Source: Nitrospirota bacterium
GTDB lineage: Bacteria > Nitrospinota_A > UBA7883
Assembly (NCBI GenBank): GCA_024275315.1
Contig: JAJRZK010000027.1
Location: forward strand, 68,714 to 132,713
Direction: 5' to 3'
Length of the DNA stretch: 64,000 nucleotides
In this document: positions 5,910 to 64,000 of the stretch, piece by piece
Numbering within the stretch: position 1 is the first letter of the stretch
How the letters are laid out: each line of letters starts with the position of its first letter
Program-made: the position numbers and the translations under genes
The notes under the pieces: model-generated
Told to the model about the DNA's origin: nothing
The model's input: only the letters and a program-made list of their open reading frames with translations
The model's database searches: none

Positions 5910-5928
5910 AGCCATTAAACCTGCAAGC

Positions 5929-16759: not shown

Positions 16760-16765
16760 GAAACG

Positions 16766-25598: not shown

Positions 25599-25650
25599 GT
25601 ATAGTCCCCGTTAATCAGCGCGTTTGCGCCGACGGTTTTTCCAGCCTGCT

Positions 25651-26076
25651 TTATAGAAGCCCGGCATTGAAAAGCACCATAAGAAGCCCGATGAACAGCA
25701 TCATCAGGATAACCTCGTTATGGTACCTTTTCTGGATATCCTTTCCGTCAATAGCGGTTTTCAACGCATCGGCGACATATTCGTCCACGGAAACATTATT
25801 AAGGCGGGCCTGGGTGGCGGTGGCTCTGTGAAGTTTCTCACCGATATTTATGTTCAGGCTCCCCCGGAACACAGCTTCCGGTTTCTGCCCAAGGGATTTG
25901 CATGTCGCAAGGTAGTCGTCAACGGCTTTTTCGAACTCTTTTCGAAGCTCCGGCAGGCTTTGCGCCTCGTAGGTCACCACATCCTGGATATATAATATTT
26001 CACCAGAGAGGCAATCATCGGCGATATGCACTTCGGCCGATCCGTAATAGTCCTTATATTCAAAAAAGCCGTCCAT
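25651..26076 (-). CDS. HicB-family antitoxin-like protein (UPF0150 + RHH) with a hydrophobic C-terminal tail, no adjacent HicA
   Basis: FEYKDYYGSAEVHIADDCLSGEILYIQ...DDYL HicB N-domain pattern. RHH-like GSLNINIGEKLHRATATQARLNNVSVDEYV. C-terminal VILMMLFIGLLMVLFNAGLL predicted TM segment. Confidence 0.55.
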   Translation of the reverse strand: MDGFFEYKDYYGSAEVHIADDCLSGEILYIQDVVTYEAQSLPELRKEFEKAVDDYLATCKSLGQKPEAVFRGSLNINIGEKLHRATATQARLNNVSVDEYVADALKTAIDGKDIQKRYHNEVILMMLFIGLLMVLFNAGLL

Positions 26077-31212: not shown

Positions 31213-31215
31213 CTT

Positions 31216-31998: not shown

Positions 31999-32996
31999 AC
32001 ATCCCCCGGATCTGTCCCGGGCAAAGATTTCTCCTCTTCCGATGTCCCGGCGTCTTGCGTGATAATTTTTATATAGATATCCTCCAGCGACACCGACCCC
32101 TTGCCAAGCTCGATCAGGTCCCACCCTTTCGAAGCCACCAGCCGGACAAGATCGCCCCTGGGGTTTGTATCGTCTTTGTGATGTATCTCTATAGTCATGG
32201 TTCGGGTTTGGTCCCTGGTTCCGGGCCGATCCTGCCTGACCAATACCTCCGTAACTCCGGGCAGGAGCCTCAGCTCGCTTCTGATCTGCTCCCCGGGACC
32301 GTCCAGCGTCACCAGAACCGTGTTTACCGCATCACCGGAAAGCCGATCCATGGCGTTGGAATCGACCAGTTTACCCTTGTTTATAATCATCGCCCTTGTG
32401 CACACCATCTGCACCTCGGACAGCAGGTGGCTCGACAGTATCACGGTGCGCCTTCCTCCCAGGTCTTTTATAAGCGAGCGCATCTCCATTATCTGTTTTG
32501 GATCCAGGCCTATGGTGGGCTCGTCCAGGATGAGAACCTGCGGGTCGCCGATCAACGCCTGCGCCAACCCGACCCTCTGCCGAAGCCCCTTGGACAGCGC
32601 TCCTATAAGCGAATTCCGGCGGGATATGACGCCGGTCAACTCCATGATGTCACCAACTTTTCTCATCCGGTCCGAACGGGCCGCGCATCCCTTAAGTTCG
32701 GCGACGTAATCGATATATTCCCATACCCTCATGTCCGGATACAGGGGTGTCGATTCCGGCAGATACCCGACACGTTTTTTCACCTCCATCGCGTGGGTGA
32801 ACACGTTGAACCCCGCGACAGTGGCCGTTCCCGCCGTAGGTGGCATGAAACCGGCGAGAATACGCATCGTGGATGTTTTACCGGCCCCGTTCGGACCCAG
32901 GAAACCGCAGATTTCCCCAGGTTCGATGGAAAATGACAGGTTGTCAACGGCGGTATGGTCGCCGTATTTCTTAGTAAGACTGTCCGCCTGGATCAA
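31992..32996 (-). CDS. ABC transporter ATP-binding protein (GldA-like)
   Basis: Walker A GPNGAGKTS, ABC signature LSKGLRQRV, Walker B ILILDEPT. Confidence 0.88.
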   Translation of the reverse strand: MIQADSLTKKYGDHTAVDNLSFSIEPGEICGFLGPNGAGKTSTMRILAGFMPPTAGTATVAGFNVFTHAMEVKKRVGYLPESTPLYPDMRVWEYIDYVAELKGCAARSDRMRKVGDIMELTGVISRRNSLIGALSKGLRQRVGLAQALIGDPQVLILDEPTIGLDPKQIMEMRSLIKDLGGRRTVILSSHLLSEVQMVCTRAMIINKGKLVDSNAMDRLSGDAVNTVLVTLDGPGEQIRSELRLLPGVTEVLVRQDRPGTRDQTRTMTIEIHHKDDTNPRGDLVRLVASKGWDLIELGKGSVSLEDIYIKIITQDAGTSEEEKSLPGTDPGDVT

Positions 32997-37600: not shown

Positions 37601-38964
37601 GACCCGGTGCCCGCGGCGCATACCTTGTTCATTTCAAAATCAACCACGGCGCCTTTGTCGATGGAGACGTATTTGCTGTCCTGCCCGCCGATCTCGAAAA
37701 TCGTATCCACTTCCGGATGAAAATGTATCGCCGCCGTCGCCTGGGCGGTTATTTCATTGCGGACGGTGTCGGCGCCGATAAAGTCGCCGATCATATACCG
37801 GCCCGATCCGGTGGTTCCCACCCCGAGTACGTTGACCTTATCCCCTATTTCCGACCCTATCTCCATCAGGCCCCTGGTGACCGCCTCGATGGGGCGGCTC
37901 CTAGTCCTGATGTATCGTCTCGCGATAACTCTCATGCTCTCGTCGATGGCGACCACGTTTGTGCTCAGCGACCCTATATCCACACCGATAAAACATCCGA
38001 TGTTTTTGTGGCCGTTCAATCTGTTCGTATGTGTGTCATACATCTCGTCATTCATCTCGCCGGTCAGGGGGCTCATGGAGCTTCTGGCGGCGTTGCGCAC
38101 GGCTCGATAGTTCTCAAGCCCACCGGTCCCCTTGAACCTGAAGCCGTTCTGGTTCTCCATGGAAATCAGCGCCGCGCCTATGGCGCCCATTACCGCCCGC
38201 TCCGGCGGGATGAATAACTCCTCTGCCGGCAATTCGAACTGTTCCGCCATGGCCTGCACCACGCCCTGGTTCCAGGAGACCCCACCGAAAAACGCGACTG
38301 GTTTGTTAATCTCCCTGCCCATGCACACGTTGCTCTTGTATGACCTCGCCACCGCGTGGCACAGCCCCGCCACTATATCCCACACCGGAGTTCCGATCTG
38401 TTGCAGGTGGATCATGTCGGATTTTGCGAAGACGGAGCACCGCCCCGCGATCCGCGGCGGGTTCTTGGATTTCAGCGCCAACTGGCCAAACTCGCCTTCT
38501 ATATCCACCCCGATTCGCTTGGCCTGCTGGTCCAGAAAACTGCCTGTGCCGGCGGCGCACAGATTGTTCATGGAAAAATCGGCGAGAACCGTCTTTCCCT
38601 CGACCTCCTTGAACATGAGCATCTTGGAGTCTTCTCCGCCCATCTCTATGAGTGTCCTGATGTTTGGGTACAAAGAGGATACGGCCCTGGAAAATGATAC
38701 GATCTCGTTGGCGAACTCCCCCCCCACCAGAGAAGCGACCAGTTCACCCGCGCTACCGGTGACGCCGATGTTCATGACGCGGGAGCCTTCGGCTTTTCCC
38801 AGCAGTTCGCTAATCGTTTTTACCGTGGCCGGAATAGGCTCGCCATACGATCGTCTGTAGGAATGGGATAAAACAGAGCCACTAGAATCGACAATGGCTC
38901 CTTTAACCGAAACAGAGCCAATATCAAGACCAATCCATACACCACCGGTTTTGTCCAAGCCCAT
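34663..38964 (-). CDS. fused 2x BadF/BadG/BcrA/BcrD-type ATPase (CoA-substrate-specific enzyme activase) + 2-hydroxyacyl-CoA-dehydratase-like domains (1433 aa)
   Basis: Two acetate/sugar-kinase-fold ATPase repeats (IGLDIGSVSVKG... and IGVDIGSLSTNV...), each with cluster-ligand CAAGTGSF motifs, followed by HgdB/HgdC-like dehydratase domains. YjiL/YjiM-type fusion architecture. Confidence 0.85.
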   Translation of the reverse strand: MGLDKTGGVWIGLDIGSVSVKGAIVDSSGSVLSHSYRRSYGEPIPATVKTISELLGKAEGSRVMNIGVTGSAGELVASLVGGEFANEIVSFSRAVSSLYPNIRTLIEMGGEDSKMLMFKEVEGKTVLADFSMNNLCAAGTGSFLDQQAKRIGVDIEGEFGQLALKSKNPPRIAGRCSVFAKSDMIHLQQIGTPVWDIVAGLCHAVARSYKSNVCMGREINKPVAFFGGVSWNQGVVQAMAEQFELPAEELFIPPERAVMGAIGAALISMENQNGFRFKGTGGLENYRAVRNAARSSMSPLTGEMNDEMYDTHTNRLNGHKNIGCFIGVDIGSLSTNVVAIDESMRVIARRYIRTRSRPIEAVTRGLMEIGSEIGDKVNVLGVGTTGSGRYMIGDFIGADTVRNEITAQATAAIHFHPEVDTIFEIGGQDSKYVSIDKGAVVDFEMNKVCAAGTGSFIEEQAEKIDLDIEKDFANTAFDAKAPGKFGDRCTVFIESDLVSNQQKGMNKQDLAAGLAYSIVSNYLNKVVGDRKIGSNILFQGGVAWNRAVVAAFQNVTGKKITVPPHHDVTGAIGAALIAMKKRLRDGPSEPSRFLGFDLQNRKYKVTTFECKACDNVCNVSRIKFEGEDAHYYGARCELFEGDKKKKKKADRPVDLFVEREKMMFGSVSTKVKRPSGTRAAVGVPRSLMSYELFPFWKTLLEDLGFEVVLSGKTSPAVIRDSIQHVKAETCFPIKIMHGHVIDLIEKGVDFIFLPSVITMNSVKSMFVQSYTCPLVQSISHIIQSAIDLAGAGVDLLAPSIFFQRGDQDVARELKTVLGDKFGIPLKDIRRAVAKARKAQDAFYMSMRDRGREVLRQAQDRGEKPVVILSRPYNGCDSGINLDLPRKLREMGKIAVPIDFLDLAEGPAWDKYPDMYWRSGQRIISAAQQVGKNNRLDAIFIYSFKCGPDSFIEHILTQALGGKPCLRLEIDEHAADAGAITRLEAFFDSLENCETASVVVRNILGKTGVNGAGSGGYNGNGVGAGVVRGDIVKGRCRTLYLPYMCDHGHIIAAALRGTGVPAVLLPKSDRESLDIGLKFSSGKECVPFAITTGDIIKKARETGFDPDRSAFFMPTTQGPCRFGQYQRVQRIILDELGFGNVPLLSPDADSGYGNSVDFGMRFRRSAWRGVVVVDILAKLLHETRPHELRPGETDRVYEQCLQKTAELVEKDSSLLFDYVWEIQDRFQAIQVDGKTRPRIGVVGEIFMRSHSFGNQEIIKRIENLGGKVWLAPIGEWIMYCTDRYINKSRIDKKYLDLIKGYMQDRIQKKDERKLLEPFKETLASAEDPMIGQVLEYASPYMRDTIEGEAILSLGKAVDFARKGLDGVVNIMPFSCMPGTIVAAISKKLREDHDNIPWLNLDYDGVEETNSQTRLEAFMYQAEQYRGKERVFENY

Positions 38965-44641: not shown

Positions 44642-45580
44642 TCAGATATGCGCGACATCCTCGGCGGATCGTTTCTTGACGTGTGTGGCGGCGGCCACCT
44701 TTATCTTGCTGGACAGAATCCTGCGGACCGTATCCAACCCCTGGTACAGCTTCAGCTCCTCCTTGTCCACCACGTCCACGGCGCCTATTTCATTCGCCCG
44801 GAGCCTCATTTTGCTCCCTTTCTGAGCGACGGAGCTGACTATGATCACAGGCTTGGGAAAATGGATCATCAGTTTTTTCAGAAACGAGACACCATCGAGC
44901 TTGGGCATGATAATGTCCAGCGTTATCACATCCGGGTTGAGCTCTAATATTTTCGACCGGGCGTCGTACGCGTCCTCGGCCTGGCCGACAACATGGATTT
45001 CATCATCCGTCGAAAGGGCTTTTTGAATGATGCCACGAACGGTGTAGGAATCGTCCACGATTAGCACCTGGATTTTGCGGCCCGCCAGGTCTTTTTTCTT
45101 CGCCTCAAGCTGTAATGTAAGCTCCGATTTCTGTATCATCCGAACTTCCACTTCGCCCGTATGGTTATCGAAGAAAATCTTCATGCCAGAGTCGCCCCCG
45201 GTCCTGTTTCTCTTTATGGCGATCCCGTGAGATTTGAGCAACTCCAGGGCTATGGCTATGTTTCGCTGGCCTATCTCGAACCCCGTGTTCAGGTGCCCGA
45301 CAACGGCGCCTCCTCCATAAACGCTCGCCTCCAGGTTTCTTTTGTTCGGGTCAACCTTGAGCATGGAGGAGATGAGCTTGTTGGTGGAATAATCACCGTA
45401 TTTACCCACCATGCTCTGGTTCCCGCCCGTGGGGAGCATAAAATGGTTCATGCCGCCGAATTTCCCGCTTTTGTTATAAAGACACACCGCGACACACGAC
45501 CCGAGCAGGGTCGATATGATGGCAGGTTGTTTGGTCAAGGCGATTTCACCCGGAAGAACAAACAGCTTCTTTTTTTCCAT
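44642..45580 (-). CDS. CheD (chemoreceptor glutamine deamidase) fused to a C-terminal CheB-type receiver domain
   Basis: N-terminus matches CheD with catalytic Cys/His context (LLGSCVAVCLY, MNHFMLP). C-terminus has KIQVLIVDDS...DVITLDIIMPKLDG...VIIVSS, closely matching the CheB N-terminal REC domain. Confidence 0.75.
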   Translation of the reverse strand: MEKKKLFVLPGEIALTKQPAIISTLLGSCVAVCLYNKSGKFGGMNHFMLPTGGNQSMVGKYGDYSTNKLISSMLKVDPNKRNLEASVYGGGAVVGHLNTGFEIGQRNIAIALELLKSHGIAIKRNRTGGDSGMKIFFDNHTGEVEVRMIQKSELTLQLEAKKKDLAGRKIQVLIVDDSYTVRGIIQKALSTDDEIHVVGQAEDAYDARSKILELNPDVITLDIIMPKLDGVSFLKKLMIHFPKPVIIVSSVAQKGSKMRLRANEIGAVDVVDKEELKLYQGLDTVRRILSSKIKVAAATHVKKRSAEDVAHI

Positions 45581-45681: not shown

Positions 45682-47841
45682 TCATTGTCCCAGAAACTGC
45701 TTGAGTATCCCTTCCACGCTCAATATCAGCGCCATCCTTGTTCCGTCCAGTATCGACACCCCCTCGAATGCACTGGGCTCTTTTGTCTGGACGGTAAGTT
45801 GCTTGTATACTATCTGGCGCTGGCCCATCATCTCGTCCACCACGAGACAGACCGTCATGCCACGCGATTCGATCAATACGCATATCGCATCCCATATATT
45901 TTCGTACCTCGGTTTCGTCTTGAAAAGAGCGTGAAGCCGGACGACCGGGTATATCTTGCCCCATCTCTGGACGACCTCGCCCTTGCCTTCCACGGTGCTT
46001 ACATCCTCGCGTTTGGCCCTGAAAGACTCTCGCACGCTCTCTGCGGGAATCAGAAACATGCTCGACCCCACCGCCAGAGTCAACCCCAGCTTGATCCTGG
46101 TTGTGTACGCCAGCGGCGTTACTATCTTCACCCGCAACCCTTCGCCGGGGGAGTTGTCCAACAGCAGTGTCCCACCCATTTCATGAACACCCGCCGACAG
46201 CACGTCCATCCCCACTCCCCTGCCGGAGGTTTCGGTGATCGATTGCGCGGTGGAAAAGCCCGGTTTTAGTATCAGGTTCAACGCTTCACTATCAGACATC
46301 TTCGCGGCCGCGTCTTGCGACACAAACCCCTTGTCTACGGCCACCTGGCGGATTTTGGCGGTATCCACACCACTTCCGTTGTCAGATATTTCTATTATCA
46401 GGTTCGCCTTGTCCGAACTGACATCGATGCAGATGCGCCCCTCCTCCTCTTTACCCGCCGCGGCGCGCTCTTTTGGTGTTTCTATTCCATGATCGGCGCT
46501 GTTTCTCACCAGATGCACAAGGATGGTTTCAATTTTTTCCAGCAGGCTTTTGTCAATCTCCGTGTCGCCACCTCTACACTCGAGCCGGATATTTTTCTTC
46601 CTTTCCCTGGCGATATTTCGCACCAGCCTGGGCAACTTGGCCAATGCCCTTTCCACGGGGGTTTTCCTGATGACGTACAGGCTTTTCTGGAGCTGGTTCG
46701 AAAGTTCACGAAACGACTGGTTGGTGTTCTTGAAATTAAGGGCGATCCCATTGAGCTCGTTATCTTCAGGCCTGCGCTGGATATAGTTGAACAGCTCGCT
46801 TAGCGTAATCAGCTCTCCCACATAGTCGATAAAAACATCCAGAAGCGATTCCTCCACCCGGACAAAACCCACCCTCCGCTCTCCCCTCCTTTGCTGGTAC
46901 CCCTTGCCATCTTGCGGCTCGGCGGCCGAGGGGGCTTTTGTCCGCTCCGGTTTTTGTTGTGTAAGTCCCTTGGCGTATTCATCCAGAACGGCGGATATGG
47001 AGCCGGCGAGCATCTCGTCGATCCCGATGGCGTCCTGGTAAAACATTTCGAAATCTTCCTTCAGAGTGTTAAGCTCGCCCAAGGGCCCGGTCACTTCCGC
47101 CTTGACGTGTTTTTCTATGAGCGCATCAAGAGCCTTGGTGAAAGTCGCATACGCGGTTTCGTCCTGGGAGCTGTTTTCCATGGCGTTGTTTATCAGAGCG
47201 CGCAAATCCAGATATTCCCGGGTAACGTCGATGTCGCCATACATCCATTTTGTTCCATCTTCCATGGATGTTTTTCTTTTGTCTTTCAACAAAAACGGGG
47301 CGTTTTTGGATATAATCTCGAACATTTCAGACACCGGACTATCTTCATATTGTCCATCATCGTAACTGGAGAAAAACACCAGCAGGCTCTTCCTCAAATT
47401 TTCAAGCTGGTTTTCCTCTGAGCCCTCTCCCAGGCTGGCGTCTATCTGCGACAAATAGGCCGCTTCATCTTCGGTAAGAGTTACATCAACTCCCTTGTTG
47501 GCGTTCAGACGGTTGAAGATATTTTTCAGGTAATCCGCGCCTTCAAGAATGAATTTCACTATCTCCCTGTCGATCTCTATTTCCTTGCTGCGGATAAGGT
47601 CAAGATAGTTTTCGAGTGTATGACAAAATGTCTGCACGTTTGTGAAATTGAAAAACGAGCTGTTTCCCTTCAGGGAATGGACAGCGCGGAAAATGCCGTG
47701 GATATGGCTTTCATCGGTCAAATCGGCGTCGAGCCCCTGGGAATGCTCCTCTATCTCCTGGAGCATCTCATCGGCCTCTTCCAAAAACGACTGGAAAAGA
47801 CTCTCCTCTATTTCCCCGCTACTCTGGTCTGTCATAAGCAC
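45682..47841 (-). CDS. cheA: chemotaxis histidine kinase CheA
   Basis: HPt (IFRAVHSLKGNS), dimerization and HATPase domains (HLVRNSADHGIE, DNGSGV, GRGVGMD), C-terminal CheW-like domain. A ~250-aa insert sits between HPt and the dimerization domain. Confidence 0.9.
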   Translation of the reverse strand: MLMTDQSSGEIEESLFQSFLEEADEMLQEIEEHSQGLDADLTDESHIHGIFRAVHSLKGNSSFFNFTNVQTFCHTLENYLDLIRSKEIEIDREIVKFILEGADYLKNIFNRLNANKGVDVTLTEDEAAYLSQIDASLGEGSEENQLENLRKSLLVFFSSYDDGQYEDSPVSEMFEIISKNAPFLLKDKRKTSMEDGTKWMYGDIDVTREYLDLRALINNAMENSSQDETAYATFTKALDALIEKHVKAEVTGPLGELNTLKEDFEMFYQDAIGIDEMLAGSISAVLDEYAKGLTQQKPERTKAPSAAEPQDGKGYQQRRGERRVGFVRVEESLLDVFIDYVGELITLSELFNYIQRRPEDNELNGIALNFKNTNQSFRELSNQLQKSLYVIRKTPVERALAKLPRLVRNIARERKKNIRLECRGGDTEIDKSLLEKIETILVHLVRNSADHGIETPKERAAAGKEEEGRICIDVSSDKANLIIEISDNGSGVDTAKIRQVAVDKGFVSQDAAAKMSDSEALNLILKPGFSTAQSITETSGRGVGMDVLSAGVHEMGGTLLLDNSPGEGLRVKIVTPLAYTTRIKLGLTLAVGSSMFLIPAESVRESFRAKREDVSTVEGKGEVVQRWGKIYPVVRLHALFKTKPRYENIWDAICVLIESRGMTVCLVVDEMMGQRQIVYKQLTVQTKEPSAFEGVSILDGTRMALILSVEGILKQFLGQ

Positions 47842-56031: not shown

Positions 56032-57228
56032 ATGGTAACCGAGCTTGCTGAAGCTCCCGGGACTGAAACGGTTTGCGCGCCCGATTTTTCGATTTTCGTA
56101 GGTAAAAGTCCTGCGTTGCAATCGGTGCTTGACACCATCTCCAACCTGTTGGATAACGACTCGACAGTCCTGGTTTTAGGCGAGAGCGGCACCGGCAAGG
56201 AACTGATCGCAAGAGCCATACATTACAATTCAAACCGAAACCAATACCCCCTGGTGACCGTCAACTGCGGCGCGATACCCGAGGAATTGCTGGAATCGGA
56301 GCTGTTCGGTCATGAAAAGGGAGCGTTTACAGGCGCCATCCGCACCCGAATCGGCAAGTTCGAGCTGGCCGACAAGGGGACAATATTCCTTGACGAGATC
56401 GGAGACATGAGCCCCACGCTTCAGATAAAGCTGTTGCGGGTGCTCCAGGAGCATGAATTCGATCGAGTGGGCGGAAACAGGACCATGAAAGTATCTGTCC
56501 GCATCATAGCGGCGACAAACCAGAACCTGGAAAAAGCCATAGAGGAAGGCAGGTTCCGTGAAGACCTCTATTACCGGCTCAACGTCATCCCGATAGAAGT
56601 CCCAGCGCTGCGTTTCCGGGGCGATGATATCTCCCTGCTGGTGACGCATTTCATAAAAAACTTCAACGCGTTGAAAAACAGAAACATCTCCGGGATGAGC
56701 CAGGAGGCGATCAACCTGCTTCGGGCGTATACATGGCCAGGCAACATACGCGAACTCGAACACATGATCGAACGGCTTGTCGTGCTCAAGGCGAGCGGTG
56801 TCATAGAAAAGCAGGATCTGCCGCCTAAACTTCAAAATCTCGAATTACCACCGGACGACCAGCTATCCAAAGACATGCTTCTCGTTGGCGATCCGGATGA
56901 ATTGGCAGAAGAGCGTCTGTCCGCCCCGGCGATCAAAATCGCGCAACCTCCAAACGGGTCACCCGACAATGTCGGCGCCCGGAGCAACATCATTGAAAAC
57001 CATCCGGGGCGGACGGACGCTGATTTTCAGATTGAAGACTCGCCCACACTTCCGGAAGAAGGGATAAACCTCAAAGAAGCGGTAGACCGTTATGAAACCG
57101 CCCTGATCCTCGCCGCGCTCGACAGATGCGGCTGGGTGAAAAACAAGGCGGCCAACCTGCTGGGGCTTAACCGCACCACCCTGGTGGAAAAACTGAAAAA
57201 GAAAAAGCTGGTCAGAACAGAGGGATAA
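56032..57228 (+). CDS. sigma-54-dependent transcriptional activator lacking any N-terminal regulatory domain (AAA+ + long linker + Fis-type HTH)
   Basis: Walker [31 protein letters not shown]-finger. C-terminal HTH ([18 protein letters not shown]). Only ~30 aa precede the AAA+ domain. Confidence 0.85.
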
Positions 57229-57536
57229 AGCCGGGCTCGCTGACAAAATCTTTTGTGCCGCCAACCAACGCCCCGCAGGTGTCGCGAATCTCGCTTCTTT
57301 GCACATACCGAGCTTTTTGCGCGGCCCTCCCTAACCTTCATTATGGAATCCGCCGATACCTCAAATGACAGCCCCAAGCCCGACCAGCCCTGTTATGGTT
57401 GCGGGCGGAGGGACACTTTTGCATGGCGGCCGGCAGGTTATGAAGGCTATTGAATGATTTACAACATGGTCTGGCCGACTTTATAATAAGGTTTTCTTGA
57501 AACGCAACTTATAACAGAAAATATCAGGACCTTTTC

Positions 57537-58916
57537 ATGGGCGATCATATCGAAACCATAGCGCTTGTCGCGGATAAGTTCATGGTGGATATGAAAATAG
57601 AGGAGCAGCTCAAAAAGGAGGGATTTAACGCCGTCATGGTCAAAAAAGCGCCTGATCTTATAAAGGCGCTGGTAAAGCTGAGCCCCGCGATCATAATCAT
57701 CGACCTGGATCACCAAAACCAGGACAATCCCCTCGCCGTAATTTCCGCCATAAAAAAAGAAGCCCAACTCAAGGAATCCGAGGTGTTCATATATACCGAA
57801 GGAATCGATGTCAGAACTGAAGTGGCCCTGAGAAAGCTAAAGGTGCAATCCTATTTCACCAAATCGAAAAACACGGAACTATTGATAAATGGAGTGCGGA
57901 ACCATTTTTCATGGGACGAAATGACGCAGGAGTATAACCCGTGGGAAGACGAGGAGGAAAACGATGACGATTACATCTATGATTTGAGAGAAGAAGAGCA
58001 AATCATAGAAAAACAGCTGGTAAAACGTCCCCGCCATCGCCCGCCGGACCGGCCGTCCCGGCCAGCGGCGACTGATGGAGCCCCCACCGCGACCCCGGCA
58101 CAGCAACGTCGTCCCGCGCCTCCACCGCAAGAGGCCGCGCCTCCACCGCAAGAGGCCGCGCCTCCAGCGCGGGAAGAACCAGCCCCGGCGGCCAAGACGC
58201 CATCCGATATCGAGGAATCATCCATAAATCTTCCGGGAATGCTCCCTGAAGATCAAAAGGAAAGCGACACCAACGAGTTCATGGAAATGCTGACCGATTT
58301 TCAAAATGGCATCAGCAAAAAGCTCGACGATGTGGAAAAAGCGCCTGGACACGGACAGGCCGCCGAGGTTGAGAACCAGATAATACAAGACGGTCCGTTC
58401 AAGGCCGAAAACCTTACATCGGAAGGGGAAGCGCTATTGACCCAGCCGGAAAATTTCACCAACACCGACGAGTTCCAGGACCTTTTGAACGAGTTTCACG
58501 CCGGGTTGGACAACAAACTTGCAAACATGGAAAAAGGTCATGAATCTCACTACAACCTGGGCATCTCGTATTTTGAAATGGGGCTGTTCGAGCAGGCCCT
58601 GGAGCAGTTCGAAAAATGCGTTGGAACCCAGGAATACAAGCTGAGAAGCATGAACATGATAGGCGCCATTCACAGAAAGCTAGGCGCCTATGATAAAGCC
58701 GTGGAGTCTTTTAAGGCATGCCACATGAACGCGCCTGATGAATATTCCAAGCTCAGCTTCCGTTATGAAATCGCGGACACTTTTATGACCCAGGGGAAAA
58801 TGCGCGACGCTTACAAAATGTTCGCCACAGTCTACAAGGTGGACAAGGGGTTTAAGGACACCAGAGCCAAGTTGATAAAAATCAAATCGGCTCTTGAAGC
58901 GAACAACCAACCCTGA
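57537..58916 (+). CDS. pseudo-receiver-like N-domain / Pro-rich linker / C-terminal TPR protein (candidate MglA partner)
   Basis: N-terminal REC-like fold with degenerate acidic pocket (ALVADKFM, IIIIDLD). Pro/Ala-rich linker including tandem APPPQEA. C-terminal TPR-like repeats (YNLGISYFEMGLFEQALEQFEKC...). The stop overlaps the mglA-like start (TGATG). Confidence 0.7.
   Translation: MGDHIETIALVADKFMVDMKIEEQLKKEGFNAVMVKKAPDLIKALVKLSPAIIIIDLDHQNQDNPLAVISAIKKEAQLKESEVFIYTEGIDVRTEVALRKLKVQSYFTKSKNTELLINGVRNHFSWDEMTQEYNPWEDEEENDDDYIYDLREEEQIIEKQLVKRPRHRPPDRPSRPAATDGAPTATPAQQRRPAPPPQEAAPPPQEAAPPAREEPAPAAKTPSDIEESSINLPGMLPEDQKESDTNEFMEMLTDFQNGISKKLDDVEKAPGHGQAAEVENQIIQDGPFKAENLTSEGEALLTQPENFTNTDEFQDLLNEFHAGLDNKLANMEKGHESHYNLGISYFEMGLFEQALEQFEKCVGTQEYKLRSMNMIGAIHRKLGAYDKAVESFKACHMNAPDEYSKLSFRYEIADTFMTQGKMRDAYKMFATVYKVDKGFKDTRAKLIKIKSALEANNQP
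58116..58166 (+). repeat. 21-nt tandem repeat (gcgcctccaccgcaagaggcc x ~2.4) encoding APPPQEA repeats in the Pro-rich linker
   Basis: Direct tandem copies at 58116-58136 and 58137-58157, plus a partial third copy. Confidence 0.6.
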
Positions 58917-59890
58917 TGGTAGTCTTCAATTACGCCAATCGTGAATTGACGGCGAAAATCGTCTATTACGGCCCGGGGCTGTGCGGGAAAACCACGAACC
59001 TTGAATTCATCCACCAGAAAATCTCCCCCGGCAAAAGAGGCCAGCTTCTAAGCCTGGCCACCGAAACCGACAGGACCCTGTTTTTCGACCTGCTACCGGT
59101 GGATCTGGGTACCATATCGGGGTTCCACGTCCGGCTACAGCTTTTTACCGTGCCCGGCCAGACGTATTATAACTCCACACGCAAACTGGTGTTGCGCGGC
59201 GCTGACGGTGTCGTATTTGTGGCCGACAGCAGGCGAGATCTGCTTGACGCCAATATCGAAAGCCTTCATAACCTTTTTGAAAACCTGAAGGAAAACAACA
59301 TCGATCCCGACTCCCTGGCGTTGGTGTTGCAATATAACAAACAGGATCTAAAACCGCTTATACCGGTGGAGGAATTGAACAAAGCCCTTAACCCCAAAGG
59401 AGCGCCATGGACAAAAGCCGTGGCGCTACGGGGTGTAGGCGTCATAGAAACTTTCAAGCTCATCTCCAAGGATGTGATCACACTGCTGAAAAACAAAGTC
59501 GGCGCGGTCCAGGTCCCGCCGGGTCCAGCCACGCCTCCGCAAAAGGCGCCACCGGCGGATATCGATGGCCAGCAGATAAAAATCAAATCGGAAAAAACCC
59601 ATATTCCGAAAGGCTCCAGGGCTACCAGGGAACAGATCCGCAAAGAAACCAGCCTTTCGGAACATGGGATAAAGTCACCGGCCCAAACAATCGAAACATG
59701 GCTAAGCTTGATGGAGGAGGGTAAAATAGACATGAGCGCAAAAGAAACACTGCCCCTGATCAACCATATAAAGAAAAACCTCGTGGGCATCATAGAAAGC
59801 AACAAGAAAACAAACGTCCAGCATGAAGACCTGTTCCGCCTTCTCGACAAGCTGGCGATGACGCTGAAAAAAGAGCCTGGTAACAAGTAA
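58916..59890 (+). CDS. mglA: MglA/SofG-family Ras-like GTPase with ~130-aa C-terminal extension
   Basis: First ~195 aa align closely with Myxococcus MglA (KIVYYGPGLCGKTTNL P-loop, TETDRTLFFD switch I with intrinsic Arg, TVPGQ, NKQD, GVGV). A Pro-rich linker and a ~90-aa helical C-domain follow. Confidence 0.8.
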   Translation: MVVFNYANRELTAKIVYYGPGLCGKTTNLEFIHQKISPGKRGQLLSLATETDRTLFFDLLPVDLGTISGFHVRLQLFTVPGQTYYNSTRKLVLRGADGVVFVADSRRDLLDANIESLHNLFENLKENNIDPDSLALVLQYNKQDLKPLIPVEELNKALNPKGAPWTKAVALRGVGVIETFKLISKDVITLLKNKVGAVQVPPGPATPPQKAPPADIDGQQIKIKSEKTHIPKGSRATREQIRKETSLSEHGIKSPAQTIETWLSLMEEGKIDMSAKETLPLINHIKKNLVGIIESNKKTNVQHEDLFRLLDKLAMTLKKEPGNK

Positions 59891-60101
59891 TAATATCCAT
59901 CCGGAACTCGGCCGGGGCTCGCCGCTGTCAACAATTTGACACAAGCGCCCATACCCGTCGCCCTGACCTGAGATATAACTCCATTAATATTAAATTGTTA
60001 ACTCGATCGCACGTCTTTCCGGAGTCGCGGCGCAAAACCGGCCACTCCGGCACGGGACTTGCTCACTTTACAGTCAGGAACAGTTGACTTTGGACAGGTA
60101 A

Positions 60102-62723
60102 GTGAGAATAGACAGCTTGGCGTTTAAAACGGTCTCCGCGCTTGTTGCGGTGGGGTTTTTCACTTTTGGCTTTCAGTTTGCCATAGGAGCCCCCGCCCGC
60201 ATCATCGATTTGAGCCTGAGCGAGCAGGAGGATCACAGCACACTCTCGATCACGACAGACATCACCCCCGACTTGGCTATGTCTTTCGACACGAAGACAT
60301 CCACCCTGACCGCCAGGCTTGTTTCAGTGACAGGGGAGAACATACTGGACGATCTCAAATACTCTGACAAGCTCATAAAATCGGTTTCGGCCGTAAAGGA
60401 AGAAAAAACCGGTGACGTGCTGATAAAGATAGCGTTCCACAAGCCAAACATCACCTTTAACCGCGCAAGCCTCCCCGGCGAGCCCGGGATCACGCTAAAC
60501 TTCCGCTCGACAGAAAAACCATTGAGAATAACCGGCGTCACCCCGGAAAAACTGATGGCCGCCATTGCCCGGCCTGCCGGGGAAAAACCTTCCAAAGAAA
60601 AAACCGTCGAACCCACCGCCCCGAAAACCGAACAACCCGCCGGCGAAACTATGGAAAAAAAGCCGGCCTCCATCGAGCCCGTAGCGGCAAAAGCGCCGGT
60701 GAAAAAGCCGGTCCGGTCAGAGCGGGAACTAGCCGAGTTGGCCGAACTGGACAAGGAATACAAGAAAATCGAGAACAATTCAGGCCGTGAACAGTATATC
60801 GAGTTGATGAAAAAGATACAGAAAGGAGAATTCGCAGAAGCCGTCGACGACGCCAACAGGTTCATGAAATATTTTCCGCTGTCGATTTACAGGGAACGGG
60901 TGTTGTACAGCAAGGCCGAAGCGCTGTACCGGATCGCAAAAAAGGACATGACCACGTTCAACACCGCCATCACAGCCGCAAACGAGGCTATCGCCTCGGC
61001 CCCGGACTCGTACCTGGCGCAACCGGCGCTGATGCACAAGGCGAGCCTGCTGGCCGACCAGGAGCTTTACACCGAAGCGCTGGCGGAATACGGCGGATTG
61101 CTTCGCCTCGCCCCGAAAGGGAAATATATTGTCACAGCCATGCTTTCCAGGGCGCAGATTTATATGAAGCAGGAGAAATTTCAGAAAGCGTACAACGAAC
61201 TGGAAAAAATCCTGATCCTTTTTCCGGCGCACAGGAAAGTGCGCGACGCAAAATATCTCATAGCAGAATCGCATTATCACAGGGGAAACTATAAGATCGC
61301 GGGAACCATATTTAACGAAGCCCTGAAACAATGGCCGACATACCCTAAAACCCACCCGGCCACATATATCAGAATCGCAGAAACGAACTATCGCCTGGGC
61401 AAAAAAAAACAGGCCATTGAAGATTGGTATTCGATCGTCAACCTCTTTCCCAAATCGTTTGAAGCGAGAAAATCGATGCTGTGGATCGGGGACACTCTTG
61501 TGGACATGAACAAGAAGCTCGACGCGGCCAAGATATTCGAGCGAACCGCGCGGCGTTATCCCAAGAACGACGAAGCTGTCATGGCCAGTATGAGACTGGC
61601 CACCTTGGGAGCCGAAAACCCGAAACTGTTGAAGCACAGCGAGATTTTCGATTACCACGCTTTTGAGCGTCCTTTTGAAACTTTCAATGAAATAATAAAG
61701 CGTTATCCCGACAAGCAGATAGGCCAGGACGCCCTCGTGCGCAAGGGCAAGGCGTTTTCCGACATCAAAAGATCCCTCTCGGCCATAATGGCGTTCAAAG
61801 AGCTCCTGAGGACATATCCGGGCTATCGCATGTCCGAAGAGGTGTTCGGGCTCGTAAGGAGCAACTTCCTGGAAATGATCAACACATATTACGAACAGGA
61901 CGGCTTTTTTATCGTGCTGATGACATATTACAACAACTTCGACCCCTTTCTGCGTGGAATAGAAAATCCCGAAATCCTGGTAAAAATAGCCGACAGCTAC
62001 TCGCATATGACACTGTACGACAGGGCCATAGAGTATTTCAGGCTCGCCAACAAGTTTGATCCGGACAAAAAACTGCTACCCAAAACGGCTTTCAACATCG
62101 CCATGATAACGCTGAAAAAGAAAAACTACGAAGAAGCGAAATCCATGTTGCGCCTTTACCTGAGGCAGTTCCCCCGATCCTCATACACCACGTCGGCCCG
62201 TCACCTGCTCGGTGACGCCTTTTATAAAACAGGTGAAGCGACGCAGGCCGTCACGGAATGGCGCATGGCCGTGGAAACAAACCCGGGACATCCCCGCACC
62301 TCGCGATCCCTGTACAATATGGGGCTGGTATACAAGGGCAAAAAGCAATACGCAATGGCCATAGACTCCTTTAACCGCGCCATAGACACTTTCTCGCCGA
62401 CCGTGAATACCGGAGAAGACCCGATCCACATTAAAAACAGCGTATATCTCGTCGCCGAAACCTATTATCTGGACCGAGACTTTCCCAACGCCATCCGGGA
62501 GGCCAACGCGGCGAAACGAAGATATAATGACGATAAACGCAATATCTGGATGGATTACCTGATATCATCCAGCCTGGAGCGGATCAACAAAGATGAGCAA
62601 GCCATAGCCAGGTTGAAAGACATGTCTGAACAGGACAAGGACCTTGCGGTGGCCAAAGTGGCCATGGCCAAGCTCAAAGCCTTCGAATGGAGAAGGAAAA
62701 ACGAGAGTCTTTTCGTAGACTAG
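60102..62723 (+). CDS. secreted multi-TPR protein with a possible N-terminal AMIN-like beta domain
   Basis: Signal peptide. A ~100-aa beta-rich segment (RIIDLSL...VLIKIAF...ITLNFRS) resembling AMIN domains. Lys/Glu/Pro-rich linker, then >=12 TPR-like repeats. GTG (60102) or TTG (60117) start. Confidence 0.7.
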   Translation: MRIDSLAFKTVSALVAVGFFTFGFQFAIGAPARIIDLSLSEQEDHSTLSITTDITPDLAMSFDTKTSTLTARLVSVTGENILDDLKYSDKLIKSVSAVKEEKTGDVLIKIAFHKPNITFNRASLPGEPGITLNFRSTEKPLRITGVTPEKLMAAIARPAGEKPSKEKTVEPTAPKTEQPAGETMEKKPASIEPVAAKAPVKKPVRSERELAELAELDKEYKKIENNSGREQYIELMKKIQKGEFAEAVDDANRFMKYFPLSIYRERVLYSKAEALYRIAKKDMTTFNTAITAANEAIASAPDSYLAQPALMHKASLLADQELYTEALAEYGGLLRLAPKGKYIVTAMLSRAQIYMKQEKFQKAYNELEKILILFPAHRKVRDAKYLIAESHYHRGNYKIAGTIFNEALKQWPTYPKTHPATYIRIAETNYRLGKKKQAIEDWYSIVNLFPKSFEARKSMLWIGDTLVDMNKKLDAAKIFERTARRYPKNDEAVMASMRLATLGAENPKLLKHSEIFDYHAFERPFETFNEIIKRYPDKQIGQDALVRKGKAFSDIKRSLSAIMAFKELLRTYPGYRMSEEVFGLVRSNFLEMINTYYEQDGFFIVLMTYYNNFDPFLRGIENPEILVKIADSYSHMTLYDRAIEYFRLANKFDPDKKLLPKTAFNIAMITLKKKNYEEAKSMLRLYLRQFPRSSYTTSARHLLGDAFYKTGEATQAVTEWRMAVETNPGHPRTSRSLYNMGLVYKGKKQYAMAIDSFNRAIDTFSPTVNTGEDPIHIKNSVYLVAETYYLDRDFPNAIREANAAKRRYNDDKRNIWMDYLISSSLERINKDEQAIARLKDMSEQDKDLAVAKVAMAKLKAFEWRRKNESLFVD

Positions 62724-62735
62724 CCGTATTCCGGA

Positions 62736-63866
62736 ATGAACAACAGGGCAAAAGAACTCGAAAAGCTCCGGGAGGCTTTTGACGCGCTCAACCTTTCGAC
62801 AGGCAAGCTAAAATCCGCCTACGACGAGCTAAAGTCCGAAGCGGCCCGGGTCAACAGGGACCTGGAGGAGAACCGGGGATTTCTGAGCGATATCCTGGAC
62901 AACCTCAACTGCGCCGTGGTGGTCACGGGCCTGGACGGTGCGGTACGCCTGTCCAACCCTGAAGCCCGCAGGCTCGGGGTGGACACCGGGCGAATGATCA
63001 AGGCGCTTCATAACAAGATGGTCAGCATCGCCGACAGGACCGAAATCCTCCAGCCGAAAATCGAGTGTGACACGGAAAACGGCGTCAAGCTCGCTGTCTC
63101 CGTTTCATGCCTGCACGCCAAAAAAAAGGGAAACGCGGGATTTATCTTCGTCATCGAAGACCAGACCGAGCTCGGCCGCCTGCGTAAACAAACCCAGAGA
63201 GCCGACAGGCTGGCGGCGATAGGGAAAATGGCGGCGGACATGGCCCACGAGGTGCGAAACCCGCTGGGGGGGATGGAAATCTTCGCTTCCCTGCTCGGGC
63301 GGGAGCTCGAGGGGGATGACGAGAAACTAAGGCTGTTAAATCACGTCACGACAGGCATCCATTCGATAAACAACGTAATCTCCAACTTCCTCCTGTTTAC
63401 AACCGACCCCAAACCTGTTAGAAAAGAGTTTGATCTTCGCAAGCTCGTCCTGAACGTAATTGAATTCACCGGGCACGTGTTCGAACAAAACAATATATTA
63501 GCCAAAACGGACATCCAGGAGTATCCGATGCCCGTCACAGCGGATGAAAACCTGATCCGGCAGGTGTTGTTGAACATGATACAAAACGCCATCAACGCAA
63601 TGCCGGATGGGGGAGAGTTTACAATCACCGCAAAAGACATAAAATCGGACGGACGGGTGGAGATCACCTGCTCTGACACGGGGCCCGGAGTGCCGGAAAA
63701 CATCAGGGAAAAAATATTCGACCCGTTTTTCACCACGAAAGAGACTGGAGCGGGACTGGGGCTCAGCATAGTGAGCCAGGTGCTCCAGGCGCATGGGGGT
63801 TACGCGGATATTCTGGAAACGGGCGCAGGCGGGACAAAATTCATCCTGGCTATTCCATACAGTTAG
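62736..63866 (+). CDS. PAS-domain sensor histidine kinase
   Basis: H-box AADMAHEVRNPLGG, N box NMIQNAINA, G1 DTGPGV, G2 GAGLGL. Confidence 0.8.
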   Translation: MNNRAKELEKLREAFDALNLSTGKLKSAYDELKSEAARVNRDLEENRGFLSDILDNLNCAVVVTGLDGAVRLSNPEARRLGVDTGRMIKALHNKMVSIADRTEILQPKIECDTENGVKLAVSVSCLHAKKKGNAGFIFVIEDQTELGRLRKQTQRADRLAAIGKMAADMAHEVRNPLGGMEIFASLLGRELEGDDEKLRLLNHVTTGIHSINNVISNFLLFTTDPKPVRKEFDLRKLVLNVIEFTGHVFEQNNILAKTDIQEYPMPVTADENLIRQVLLNMIQNAINAMPDGGEFTITAKDIKSDGRVEITCSDTGPGVPENIREKIFDPFFTTKETGAGLGLSIVSQVLQAHGGYADILETGAGGTKFILAIPYS

Positions 63867-63875
63867 AGCGGACAA

Positions 63876-64000
63876 ATGGAGCCTAAAAACATCCTGGTCG
63901 TCGACGACGAAGAAGAGATGCGTATAGCGCTGAAAGAAGCGCTCCACCGCGCCGGATACCAGGTCACCCTGGCAGGCGATGGCGAGGAGGGATACCGCCT
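63876..64000 (+). CDS. response regulator receiver (5' partial, runs off the window)
   Basis: MEPKNILVVDDEEEMRIALKEAL..., a typical REC N-terminus. Likely the cognate regulator of the kinase at 62736. Confidence 0.6.
   Translation, partial: MEPKNILVVDDEEEMRIALKEALHRAGYQVTLAGDGEEGYR

Follow-up and report, generated by a model that had tools for sequence, protein, structure and literature searches.

The closest described systems are built around MglA, the Ras-like GTPase of the known bacterial polarity switch, and around SgmX, a TPR protein of Myxococcus xanthus that binds it. The C-terminal TPR triad of SgmX is by itself able to bind MglA-GTP and does not bind MglA-GDP (PMC7668184, PMC13408092); its KD for MglA-GTP is about 0.6 uM, and GTP release is slowed approximately tenfold (PMC13408092). 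In the full-length protein, the triad keeps a further binding site hidden as long as MglA-GTP is not bound (PMC9811614). Bd2492 of Bdellovibrio has been described as a remote homolog of SgmX (PMC7668184), and the role of RomR/RomX is under revision, as effector rather than GEF (PMC13408092). For MglA itself, the reference classification is the survey of Wuichet and Sogaard-Andersen (2015), which applied a size filter of 150-240 aa and recorded 59 of 449 MglAs without an mglB gene within four genes.

The window, i.e. the whole 64-kb stretch of DNA that was analysed, carries on its + strand a partner gene (57537..58916), which encodes a 459-aa protein made up of a receiver domain, a Pro-rich linker and a TPR module resembling the C-terminus of SgmX, and directly behind it the gene of an extended MglA of 324 aa (58916..59890, + strand). 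In the ORF listing the two reading frames overlap by one base, which the MglA gene has in common with the stop codon of the partner (TGATG, in the context ccCTGATGgt). Both ORFs and the overlap are real, in agreement with the translational coupling that a sequence-only reading of this DNA had proposed. The gene immediately before the long MglA is a homolog of the partner in all of the 8 independent loci compared (the window and seven others), and the one-base overlap is found in 6 of them; the flanking genes vary between loci, while the pair itself is adjacent in every one. The tail of the MglA and the partner were found only together, both being confined to one lineage. A putative sigma-70-like promoter (TTTACA, 18-nt spacer, TATAAT; 57458..57487, + strand), assigned by consensus match only, precedes the partner gene by about 50 nt; it agrees with the consensus at 11 of 12 positions and is the sole strong + strand site between 55.7 and 60.2 kb. 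Gene order and reading frames mark the pair as a conserved MglA switch module of Nitrospinota, bicistronic and coupled in translation.

Matches to solved MglA structures assign residues 1-196 of the GTPase (58916..59503, + strand) to the G domain of a Group-1 MglA. In phmmer searches of the PDB, residues 3-196 align without a gap over 194 residues to MglA of M. xanthus (5ymx; E 3.6e-66, 54.6% identity), further matches being 6h17 (E 7e-66) and 3t12 of T. thermophilus (E 1.1e-61); the next best matches after the MglA structures are Rab and Sec4, at E of about 1e-4. The motifs GPGLCGKTT, TETDRT (R53, T54), TVPGQ (T78-V79-P80-G81-Q82) and NKQD are intact, which bears out the earlier statement that all the catalytic signatures of MglA are present. 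G21, K25, T26, R53, T54, TVPGQ and NKQD are invariant or nearly so in family alignment A1; R53-T54 is invariant in the 29-sequence family alignment, and so, within the family, is TVPGQ, the G3 motif, in which Thr replaces the Asp of Ras and the catalytic Gln is kept. The intrinsic Arg finger R53 sits beside the conserved G2 Thr, the arrangement required of Group-1 MglAs. In switch I and switch II (ATETDRTLFFDLLP and TVPGQTYYNSTRKL) the GTPase differs little in sequence from M. xanthus MglA, and the pLDDT of the AF2 model is about 90 over the G domain. With R53, Gln82 and G21 unsubstituted, the GTPase is, to judge from its residues, a catalytically complete Group-1 MglA.

The G domain is followed by a tail of about 128 residues that starts with a Pro-rich stretch, in line with the ~130 extra residues and Pro-rich start noted before. 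The first part of the tail (residues 197-277; 59504..59746, + strand) consists of the Pro-rich linker and then the short motifs IKIKSEKTHIP, REQIRKETSLSEHG and TIETWLSL, which are conserved in alignment A1. The second part (residues 278-318; 59747..59869, + strand) is predicted by AF2 to be a single long amphipathic helix with a heptad pattern, in which the best register places hydrophobic residues at 8 of 12 a/d positions and whose consensus in alignment A1 is IRKNLxxIIExNKKxNxRYExLxRQLxKLA. A helical domain of about 90 aa had been envisaged here; the AF2 model gives instead a disordered linker (disorder predicted for residues 198-259, pLDDT <50) with the short motifs, plus a pair of short helices and a longer one of about 40 aa (residues 278-318, pLDDT 59-73), all of low to moderate confidence. 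The tail matched no family in Pfam or NCBIfam, as had been expected of a region of no obvious family, and among 1.84 billion representative proteins its profile recovered nothing beyond its own family. Because the predicted structure is of low confidence and a homolog is lacking, localisation, oligomerisation or tethering as the role of the tail is a guess. The tail is conserved along its whole length in about 40 protein clusters, those named being from Nitrospinota. On account of this conservation we rejected the explanation, raised earlier as a possible refutation, that a misassembly or a frameshift error has fused mglA to a separate downstream ORF; the clusters represent single ORFs of 293-358 aa with alignable tail motifs from independent NCBI, JGI, ENA and Logan assemblies, seven further independent loci show the extended MglA at the DNA level, and the chance of such an artefact is practically nil.

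Extended MglAs had been thought to be rare. This is contradicted by the presence of C-terminal extensions in most of the 120 best database matches to the GTPase and in 83 of 84 MglA genes counted over the fetched loci and the window, and by these counts C-terminally extended MglAs are common in metagenomes. A related arrangement was seen in another lineage, where a mini-SgmX gene lies directly upstream of an extended MglA (locus L069). At 324 aa the GTPase exceeds the single-domain size range of 150-240 aa, and since the survey kept only proteins in that range, extended MglAs fell outside the reference classification.

Only one of the 84 MglA genes adjoins an mglB, and it encodes the sole short MglA, of 192 aa. 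The search for Roadblock/LC7 domains (Robl_LC7) in the 26 small ORFs of the 64-kb window found none, and searches together with precomputed Pfam annotation found no Roadblock/MglB genes within +/-10 kb in the seven other loci; the known mglB of locus L048, used as the positive control, was detected at E 2e-9. By the canonical measure, an mglB lies within four genes of mglA; in the window, mglA is surrounded by genes for a sigma-54 activator, the receiver-TPR protein, a further TPR protein, a kinase and a regulator. A canonical mglB immediately outside the window, forming the usual mglBA pair, had been named as an observation that would overturn the interpretation; the window ends in a gene for a receiver-sigma54 regulator, not in mglB. 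The loci examined therefore support the earlier view of a compact two-gene MglA module with no Roadblock/LC7 MglB encoded nearby. Extended MglAs without a nearby mglB appear to be common in Nitrospinota, Nitrospirota and Acidobacteriota, which constitutes a gap in the reference classification.

The receiver (REC) domain of the partner, delimited by AF2 and the family profile, spans residues 7-127 (57555..57917, + strand). Its predicted fold is (beta-alpha)5 (pLDDT about 85-91), with strands at residues 7-11, 31-35, 52-55, 82-87 and 105-108 and helices between them. The acceptor D56 (codon 57702-57704) aligns with CheY D57 and Spo0F D54 in the family profile. The window protein keeps D13, D56, T87 and K109, a set retained in 16 of the 17 distinct partner proteins, and has lost the first acidic residue (A12-D13, versus E-D in most homologs). 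With Pfam Response_reg (PF00072) it scores 22.4 bits, below the curated cut-off of 30.2, while the homolog in locus L004 reaches 38.1 bits. The domain had been called a degenerate or pseudo-receiver. That label fails because the phospho-acceptor set is largely intact, only A12 being lost from a confidently modelled fold, and the receiver appears not clearly degenerate. In the lineage of locus L001 the acceptor set is replaced by N, C, A and Q; the core function thus cannot require phosphorylation in all lineages.

Between the receiver and the TPR module lies an acidic and Pro-rich linker (residues 131-306; 57927..58454, + strand), which is disordered in the AF2 model, with pLDDT <50 over most of its length. 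It is much longer than in the homologs, most of which have 314-383 aa in total against 459 aa for the window partner (alignment A2). It holds a 21-bp tandem repeat of 2.7 copies at 58114-58170. The pre-TPR helix recurs within the linker at 58248-58337 (residues 238-267), where 28 aa align at 36% identity (E 4e-7). The order of receiver-like domain, Pro-rich linker and TPR repeats stood as described before.

Residues 308-457 of the partner (58458..58907, + strand) comprise a pre-TPR helix, three TPRs and a capping helix, modelled by AF2 at pLDDT 84-95, and NCBIfam and hhalign relate them to the C-terminal MglA-GTP-binding module (M-domain) of SgmX. The top match of the window protein is the NCBIfam SgmX model NF052243, at positions 866-1021 of 1065 (E 1e-11). 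This model is matched by 12 of the 13 family members (best E 2.6e-16), and in 7 of the 8 members checked individually the matched region is about 860-1020 of 1065, which we equated with TPR12-14 from the shared C-terminal location. As specificity controls, SgmX was not listed for 6 of 7 generic TPR proteins, nor for the neighbouring TPR protein of 873 aa. When the whole partner was searched against 5.8 billion proteins, the sole match outside the family was P0133, an SgmX-like protein of 798 aa that matches the SgmX model at E 2.6e-57; the TPR module aligns with its C-terminal end (640-781) with an hhalign probability of 99.3% (E 2.7e-20, 141 of 155 columns). On these alignments, the TPR module is a homolog of the SgmX C-terminal module, and the parallel drawn earlier with the TPR partner of MglA in Bdellovibrio proves stronger than anticipated, Bd2492 being described as a remote SgmX homolog. 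The identity to SgmX is about 28%, and the partner scores 44 bits with the SgmX model, far below the NCBIfam equivalog cut-off of 1800, the match covering the C-terminal module alone; the binding of MglA by the TPR module is thus something we infer.

The genes around the pair are in part shared between loci. Immediately upstream is a sigma-54 activator with AAA+ and HTH domains and without an N-terminal regulatory domain (56032..57228, + strand; Pfam Sigma54_activat over residues 23-189 of 398). An equivalent gene takes the corresponding place in L003, where Pfam identifies it, and in L004 (402 aa), where it was judged by size and position only, so that the activator is adjacent in 3 of the 8 loci; it stands outside the invariant core because it is absent from the others. 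Downstream, a sigma-54-type promoter (GGCACG, 4 nt, TTGC; 60049..60062, + strand) lies about 40 nt before the gene of the large TPR protein (873 aa, with an N-terminal hydrophobic segment; 60102-62723, + strand, annotated from Pfam and NCBIfam). It is the single exact match in the 64-kb window, where 0.65 would be expected by chance, and L003 and L004 have equivalent sites in the corresponding position. A histidine kinase gene (62736-63866, + strand) and the start of the receiver-sigma54 regulator gene (63876 to the window end at 64000, + strand) follow. The large TPR gene and the kinase come after the pair in 4 of the 8 loci (the window, L003 and L086 by Pfam, and L004 by gene sizes), and the neighbours are unrelated in L001, L005, L085 and L087. 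These two genes are frequent, not invariant, neighbours.

We consider it somewhat better than an even chance (probability about 55%) that the partner is a phosphorylation-tunable, SgmX-like binder of MglA-GTP that is made together with its GTPase. The TPR module would bind the GTP form of the co-produced MglA, and the partner, as effector or adaptor, would stabilise the ON state. Through the receiver, this interaction or the next step of the complex may depend on phosphorylation by a kinase, for which the histidine kinase at 62736-63866 and a CheA encoded at 45682-47841 in the window are candidates. The tail could serve, through its flexible linker and amphipathic, coiled-coil-like helix, in localisation, in oligomerisation or as a second tether to the partner, and GTP would be hydrolysed by means of the Arg and Gln of MglA itself, possibly with help from an unrelated factor or from a GAP whose gene lies elsewhere. 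The output of the switch may lie in pili, polarity, the envelope or transcription. To our knowledge, no MglA function is known in the phylum of this pair, and we infer a role in polarity from the homologs. A bolder version, in which tail and partner form a closed regulatory loop (for instance by docking of the tail motifs or helix on the partner) and phosphorylation of the receiver, in place of a Roadblock GAP, decides when MglA-GTP is held, released or hydrolysed, would make the pair a self-contained, MglB-independent switch; we regard this as doubtful, and if true it would couple two-component signalling directly to a Ras-like switch.

Other explanations have to be weighed against that of a co-produced MglA-GTP binder. 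The polarity system to which the pair belongs might be of the ordinary MglA/MglB type, with mglB, romR/romX and a full-length sgmX at other places in the genome, the partner being one accessory MglA-GTP effector and the tail a dispensable decoration. The sequence covered amounts to 64 kb here and to 20 kb for the other genomes, MglAs without mglB within four genes make up 59 of the 449 in the reference survey, and the G domain is very conservative, with 55% identity to M. xanthus MglA. However, the pair remains adjacent, its reading frames overlapping, in 8 of 8 loci while its flanking genes vary, the tail motifs and the terminal helix are conserved across the family, and mglB adjoins only the short 192-aa MglA among the 84 examined; an ordinary system is possible but rather unlikely. 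The want of an mglB in the window or within +/-10 kb across the 8 loci can also be read otherwise, for G21, R53 and Q82 are intact and GTP hydrolysis is consequently expected to matter. The partner might act upstream of MglA, as a phosphorylation-controlled regulator of the nucleotide cycle that replaces MglB or RomR/RomX (as GAP, GEF, GDI-like or sequestering protein), its TPR module holding MglA while the receiver or the tail regulates. Such a function would agree with the translational coupling, which suggests stoichiometric co-production, with the confinement of tail and partner to the same lineage, and with the altered nucleotide kinetics already brought about by the SgmX C-terminus in slowing GTP release. 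The homologous SgmX module nevertheless behaves as an effector, the AF2 models of the pair show no Roadblock- or longin-like fold, and we know of no TPR or receiver domain that is a GAP or GEF for MglA; we judge an upstream regulator improbable.

The genomic context raises one more explanation, namely that the pair controls sigma-54 transcription by gating the adjacent activator, as PspA gates PspF, the activator in turn driving the promoter of the TPR-kinase-regulator operon. The activator without N-terminal domain immediately upstream, the sigma-54 promoter immediately downstream, which is conserved in L003 and L004, and the large TPR gene and kinase behind the pair in 4 of 8 loci are consistent with it, and a transcriptional role was proposed for another MglA group by Wuichet and Sogaard-Andersen. 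Against it, no more than 3 of the 8 loci have the activator next to the pair and 4 the TPR-kinase unit, the neighbours in L001, L005, L085 and L087 are unrelated, and the homolog of the TPR module is an effector in pilus function and polarity and not a partner of a transcription factor. We therefore hold a transcriptional function to be very unlikely.

If the partner does bind MglA-GTP, the SgmX C-terminal module of about 150 residues would be a portable MglA-GTP reader that is joined to varied input and output domains; here it sits on a phosphorylatable receiver, in one operon with its GTPase. The pair is small and naturally co-expressed, and could serve both to solve how MglA-GTP is recognised by TPR effectors and to ask whether two-component phosphorylation feeds directly into a bacterial Ras-like switch.

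Compared with the known systems, a receiver and SgmX-type TPR partner encoded together with MglA would represent a new wiring of the bacterial polarity switch. The GTPase shares with MglA of M. xanthus and T. thermophilus the P-loop, the Arg finger by the G2 Thr, TVPGQ, NKxD and near-identical switches. It is longer than canonical MglA (324 against ~195 aa) because of its family-specific tail of 128 aa, and whereas canonical mglA adjoins mglB, the Nitrospinota mglA is coupled translationally to the receiver-TPR gene. SofG, a 239-aa MglA paralog of M. xanthus compared here by description, likewise combines Group-1-type catalytic residues with additional sequence after the G domain and lacks a cognate MglB, but is much shorter. 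The tail of our GTPase has no homolog outside its own family.

The partner had also been called RomR-like. This holds for the architecture, since RomR, an MglA-linked protein of the polarity module in M. xanthus and Bdellovibrio, also has a receiver at its N-terminus and a disordered Pro-rich linker behind it; it does not hold for the C-terminus, which is Glu-rich and conserved in RomR and is replaced by the TPR module in the partner, nor for the receiver, whose NCBIfam matches are all to generic response-regulator families (ActR/PrrA, FixJ, PleD) with none specific to RomR. No RomX-like small gene adjoining the pair was seen in the ORF listing, RomR and RomX being judged by description.

With SgmX and Bd2492 the partner shares the helix and three TPRs homologous to the MglA-GTP-binding C-terminal part of SgmX. 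A disordered Pro-rich region precedes its TPR module, and SgmX, too, is reported to contain a Pro-rich region. TPR1-8 (pilus-activating) and TPR9-11 (FrzS-binding) of SgmX are absent from the partner, which has the receiver in their place, and its gene is directly upstream of mglA, unlike sgmX with its tamAB-type cluster. The masking of another site by the SgmX triad offers a precedent for a possible interaction between receiver and TPRs within the partner chain. In the pairing of the FrzS pseudo-receiver with TPR9-11 of SgmX, too, a CheY-like domain and SgmX-type TPRs cooperate in MglA-controlled targeting. The FrzS system is distributed over two proteins and works through FrzS-binding TPRs, whereas the partner unites the receiver and TPRs of the MglA-binding type in one polypeptide; and where FrzS has lost the capacity for phosphorylation, the receiver of the partner has kept its phospho-acceptor residues.

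Two overlapping genes on the forward strand are defined by the ORF listing and the raw sequence: 57537-58916 (+), which encodes the 459-aa protein composed of a receiver, a Pro-rich linker and TPRs (hereafter the partner), and 58916-59890 (+), which encodes the 324-aa long MglA. The coupling of the two ORFs through a TGATG overlap, claimed by the sequence-only reading, is real; the raw sequence at the junction is ccCTGATGgt, in which the A of the MglA ATG is also the A of the partner's TGA. Since the ORFs overlap and a sigma-70-like promoter (TTTACA, an 18-nt spacer and TATAAT; 11 of 12 consensus matches) is found at 57458-57487, the two genes appear to form an operon by themselves. Eight independent loci were read, namely the window and the database loci L001 (L002 covers the same site), L003, L004, L005, L085, L086 and L087. 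A receiver-TPR gene lies directly upstream of a long MglA gene in all eight and the one-base overlap of the reading frames is present in six, while the genes flanking the pair vary; the gene pair alone is the invariant core of the locus. A contig profile search with the family alignment revealed at least two further loci of the family, and the matches listed were mostly MglAs of Acidobacteriota and Nitrospirota. Nitrospinota genomes in which the pair occurs include JBPRGF01, GCA_016208975.1 and GCA_040961205.1.

Residues 3-196 of the long MglA match the solved structures of the MglAs of Myxococcus xanthus (5ymx, E 3.6e-66) and Thermus thermophilus (3t12, E 1.1e-61), and the next structures after the MglAs, Rab and Sec4, match near E 1e-4. 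The alignment with M. xanthus MglA is gapless, with 54.6% identity. All of the MglA catalytic signatures noticed earlier are intact: the P-loop GPGLCGKTT, TETDRT (with R53 and T54), TVPGQ (with Q82) and NKQD. Group-1 MglAs are defined by two features, an Arg beside the G2 Thr and TVPGQ (PMC4316618); both are found in the window GTPase, which by its sequence is a Group-1 MglA. The MglA of Bdellovibrio has Ser in place of the Gly at the G21 position, a change believed to hold that protein in its GTP state (PMC3983030). Because G21 is retained in the window MglA, this protein should be able to cycle.

Beyond the G domain, the GTPase carries a tail of about 128 aa. In a database search, about 40 clusters of 293-358 aa aligned over 95-100% of the long MglA, and where the source gives an organism for them it is Nitrospinota or Nitrospinae. 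In the tail alignment a Pro-rich linker comes first; conserved motifs follow at residues 220-262 (K-V-T-T-E-K, then H-I-P; K-E-x-I-x-x-E-x-S-L-x-x-H-G), all of them short, and the end is formed by a block with the consensus IRKNLxxIIExNKKxNxRYExLxRQLxKLA. As these motifs and the terminal block are conserved across the roughly 40 clusters, we rejected the possibility that the long ORF is a frameshift or fusion artefact. The sequence-only reading had described a helical domain of about 90 aa in the tail, which the AlphaFold2 model based on the family alignment does not bear out: after a G domain with pLDDT of about 90, residues 198-259 are disordered, and the tail comprises two short helices (238-245 and 254-267) and a single long helix (278-318, pLDDT 59-73), which carries a heptad-like hydrophobic stripe. 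The tail matched no Pfam family at E<=1, and a search of 15 members against NCBIfam at E<=10 gave scattered single matches with no consistent family. When a tail profile was run with HMMER on 1.84 billion representative proteins, only two representatives came up, both of which belong to the long-MglA family, and among the 84 MglAs examined the profile matched solely the long MglAs of receiver-TPR pair loci. As the Pfam, NCBIfam and exhaustive profile searches gave no outside relative, the tail is, to judge from them, a lineage-specific addition without detectable stand-alone relative. In these searches, which did not include RomX itself, no sequence evidence supports the idea that the tail derives from a regulator, RomX-like or otherwise independent, that became fused to the GTPase.

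In the partner, Pfam detected TPRs at 336-456 and, below threshold, a receiver at 8-118. A search of 5.8 billion proteins with the partner gave 13 matches at E<=1e-5, 12 of which, comprising the query itself and 11 homologs, share the receiver-TPR architecture and are mostly 314-383 aa long; the 13th, P0133, is a 798-aa all-TPR protein. The window partner is longer than its homologs because its linker is expanded. This linker contains a 21-bp tandem repeat (58114-58170 (+); 2.7 copies, 97% identity) encoding repeated PPPQEAA, as well as a duplicate, now diverged, of the pre-TPR helix (58248-58337 (+); 36% identity over 28 aa), and in the alignment of partner homologs both features are common to the window protein and P0122, an 84% identical partner from another sample. 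In the AlphaFold2 model, residues 7-127 form with confidence a (beta-alpha)5 receiver (pLDDT about 85-91), most of the stretch 131-306 is disordered, and residues 311-455 form, again with confidence, a helix followed by three TPRs and a cap (pLDDT 84-95).

The receiver had been called degenerate. The fold is predicted with confidence, however, and the window partner retains D13, D56, T87 and K109, as do 16 of 17 distinct partner proteins; D56 aligns with CheY D57 and Spo0F D54 in the family profile. The L001 lineage is the sole one in which the four residues are lost (replaced by N, C, A and Q). As the window partner keeps them, the label 'pseudo-receiver' does not appear to be justified for it; its receiver may be phosphorylated, with the reservation that the domain is divergent and has A12 in place of the first acidic residue, which is E in most homologs. 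At a distance of about 10 kb from the pair are genes for a CheA (45682-47841 (-); Hpt, HATPase_c and CheW) and for a fusion of CheD with a receiver (44642-45580 (-)). The Frz input into the MglA module is a parallel from which this CheA may be proposed as phosphodonor of the partner's receiver.

The best NCBIfam match of the partner is the model of SgmX, the M. xanthus TPR effector of MglA-GTP, at positions 866-1021 of 1065 (E 1e-11). The SgmX model is matched by 12 of the 13 partner-family members, and seven of eight members checked individually match the same region (about 858-1020; best E 2.6e-16). As controls, the TPR-rich 873-aa protein encoded directly downstream of the pair and six of seven generic TPR proteins have no SgmX listing, and the seventh lists it at rank 15 through a single repeat. 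P0133 matches the SgmX model with E 2.6e-57, and hhalign aligned the partner's TPR profile with the C-terminal residues 640-781 of P0133 (probability 99.3%, E 2.7e-20, 141 of 155 columns), including the helix ahead of the TPRs and the F-K/R-D/N motif at the end. The link of the partner to SgmX thus comes from NCBIfam and hhalign; no named SgmX proteins surfaced when the TPR-module profile was searched against a word-indexed protein database, where the best new match was P0136, whose gene does not adjoin an mglA. In SgmX, MglA-GTP, though not MglA-GDP, is bound by the final TPR triad, TPR12-14 (the M-domain), which also covers a polar-targeting site as long as no MglA-GTP is bound (PMC7668184; PMC9811614). 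In isolation, this triad has a KD of about 0.6 uM for MglA-GTP and reduces the rate of GTP release by a factor of about ten (PMC13408092). Judged from position and not from the M. xanthus sequence, the C-terminal 160 positions of the SgmX model would correspond to TPR12-14.

A related arrangement was found at L069 8813-10987, from a Candidatus Anaeroferrophillacea MAG, where a 386-aa mini-SgmX is encoded directly upstream of a 328-aa extended MglA. This mini-SgmX has no receiver domain; it matches the SgmX model in two stretches (E 6e-25), the better of which falls on the N-terminal TPRs of the model, and in its C-terminal region it is matched by the TPR profile of the partner (E 1.9e-17). On this sequence evidence, the pairing of an SgmX-type gene with mglA is not unique to Nitrospinota.

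No gene for MglB, the Roadblock/LC7 GAP of MglA, was found nearby, in agreement with the earlier observation. When 26 small window ORFs of 80-250 aa, none overlapping another, were scanned with Pfam, no Robl_LC7 came up; the gene running off the window end encodes a receiver-sigma54 regulator, as in L003, and the precomputed Pfam annotation of L001, L003 and L085-L087 gave no Robl_LC7 within +/-10 kb. The sole short MglA of the set (192 aa, L048) has a bona fide mglB upstream (Robl_LC7, E 2e-9). A phmmer search with this MglB against all ORFs of the 84 loci recovered only itself, with none in the other 83 loci or the window, and its sensitivity is limited because a single seed was used; the 83 loci were assessed for mglB by this search alone. 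One rival explanation would be an ordinary MglA system with mglB elsewhere in the genome, and the absence found here covers the window and up to +/-10 kb at the other loci. Another would be that the partner regulates the nucleotide cycle, replacing MglB or RomRX.

A third rival, that the module would gate sigma-54 transcription, concerns the genes around it. Upstream, at 56032-57228 (+), lies a gene for a sigma-54 activator of PspF-like architecture, without N-terminal regulatory domain; such a gene also precedes the pair in L003 (by Pfam) and L004 (by size and position). On the other side, an operon of the large TPR gene, a kinase (62736-63866) and a regulator (60049-64000 (+)) starts with a sigma-54-type promoter (GGCA[CT]G, 4 nt, TTGCT; 60049-60062 (+)) that is conserved in L003 and L004. 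After the pair, a large TPR gene and a histidine kinase gene are present in the window, L003 and L086 (by Pfam) and in L004 (by gene sizes). No sigma-54 promoter was found ahead of the pair itself; the only site is the downstream one, before the 873-aa TPR gene. In L001, a PilZ-domain gene replaces the large TPR gene after MglA, with a 9-nt gap.

Several other features were observed around the pairs and in the window. In L001 (9032-11608), from one Nitrospinota lineage, the first PilZ gene is closely followed by another PilZ gene and a ComF-like one, with a flagellin gene upstream, and on the Nitrospinota contig of L085 a Mu-like prophage region (1-7346; capsid, protease, a portal split in three ORFs, and terminase) lies a few kb from the pair. 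The window region 25266-26076 (-) contains a small PilZ-domain ORF (25266-25598) and a HicB-like ORF (25651-26076). An NtrC-type regulator gene at 15722-17095 (+) (receiver, sigma-54 AAA+ and HTH) is interrupted at 16757-16759 by one in-frame TAG, which could reflect a pseudogene, an error of sequencing or read-through at this codon. The region 28058-32996 (-) encodes a DUF4340 protein and, slightly further on, an ABC-transporter ATPase, reminiscent of GldA/F/G-type transporters, and 34663-38964 (-) encodes a 1433-aa fusion of a BcrAD/BadFG-type ATPase, DUF2229 and a 2-hydroxyglutaryl-CoA dehydratase D-like end (CoA-enzyme activase type).

Extended MglAs had been regarded as rare, but C-terminal extensions of several unrelated kinds were present in 83 of the 84 MglA genes examined. 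Long unrelated extensions are widespread in L006-L083 (Acidobacteriota, Nitrospirota and others); the kinds include beta-rich modules as well as coiled coils whose ends, KKSWFRF or KKGFFWNR, look like membrane-targeting ones. In the phmmer search with its single seed, the extended MglAs of L006-L083, the short MglA of L048 being excepted, had no mglB within 10 kb. The reference survey retained only GTPases of 150-240 aa (PMC4316618), and this size limit may explain why extended MglAs are unclassified. The pair points to an uncatalogued class of extended MglAs without nearby mglB. We found no paper mentioning both MglA and Nitrospina.

The reading we propose is that the partner's TPR module would bind the GTP form of its MglA, that the receiver would make this interaction, or its consequence, dependent on phosphorylation, and that the tail may tether, localise or oligomerise the GTPase. 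The pair is a compact and testable system. The parallel drawn earlier with the TPR partner of MglA in Bdellovibrio has a sequence basis, since the partner's TPRs match the C-terminal end of SgmX and Bd2492, the Bdellovibrio protein, is described as a remote SgmX homolog (PMC3983030; PMC7668184). The partner's TPR module is of the SgmX-C-terminal type, and the pair belongs, as a variant, to the known system of MglA and an SgmX-type effector.
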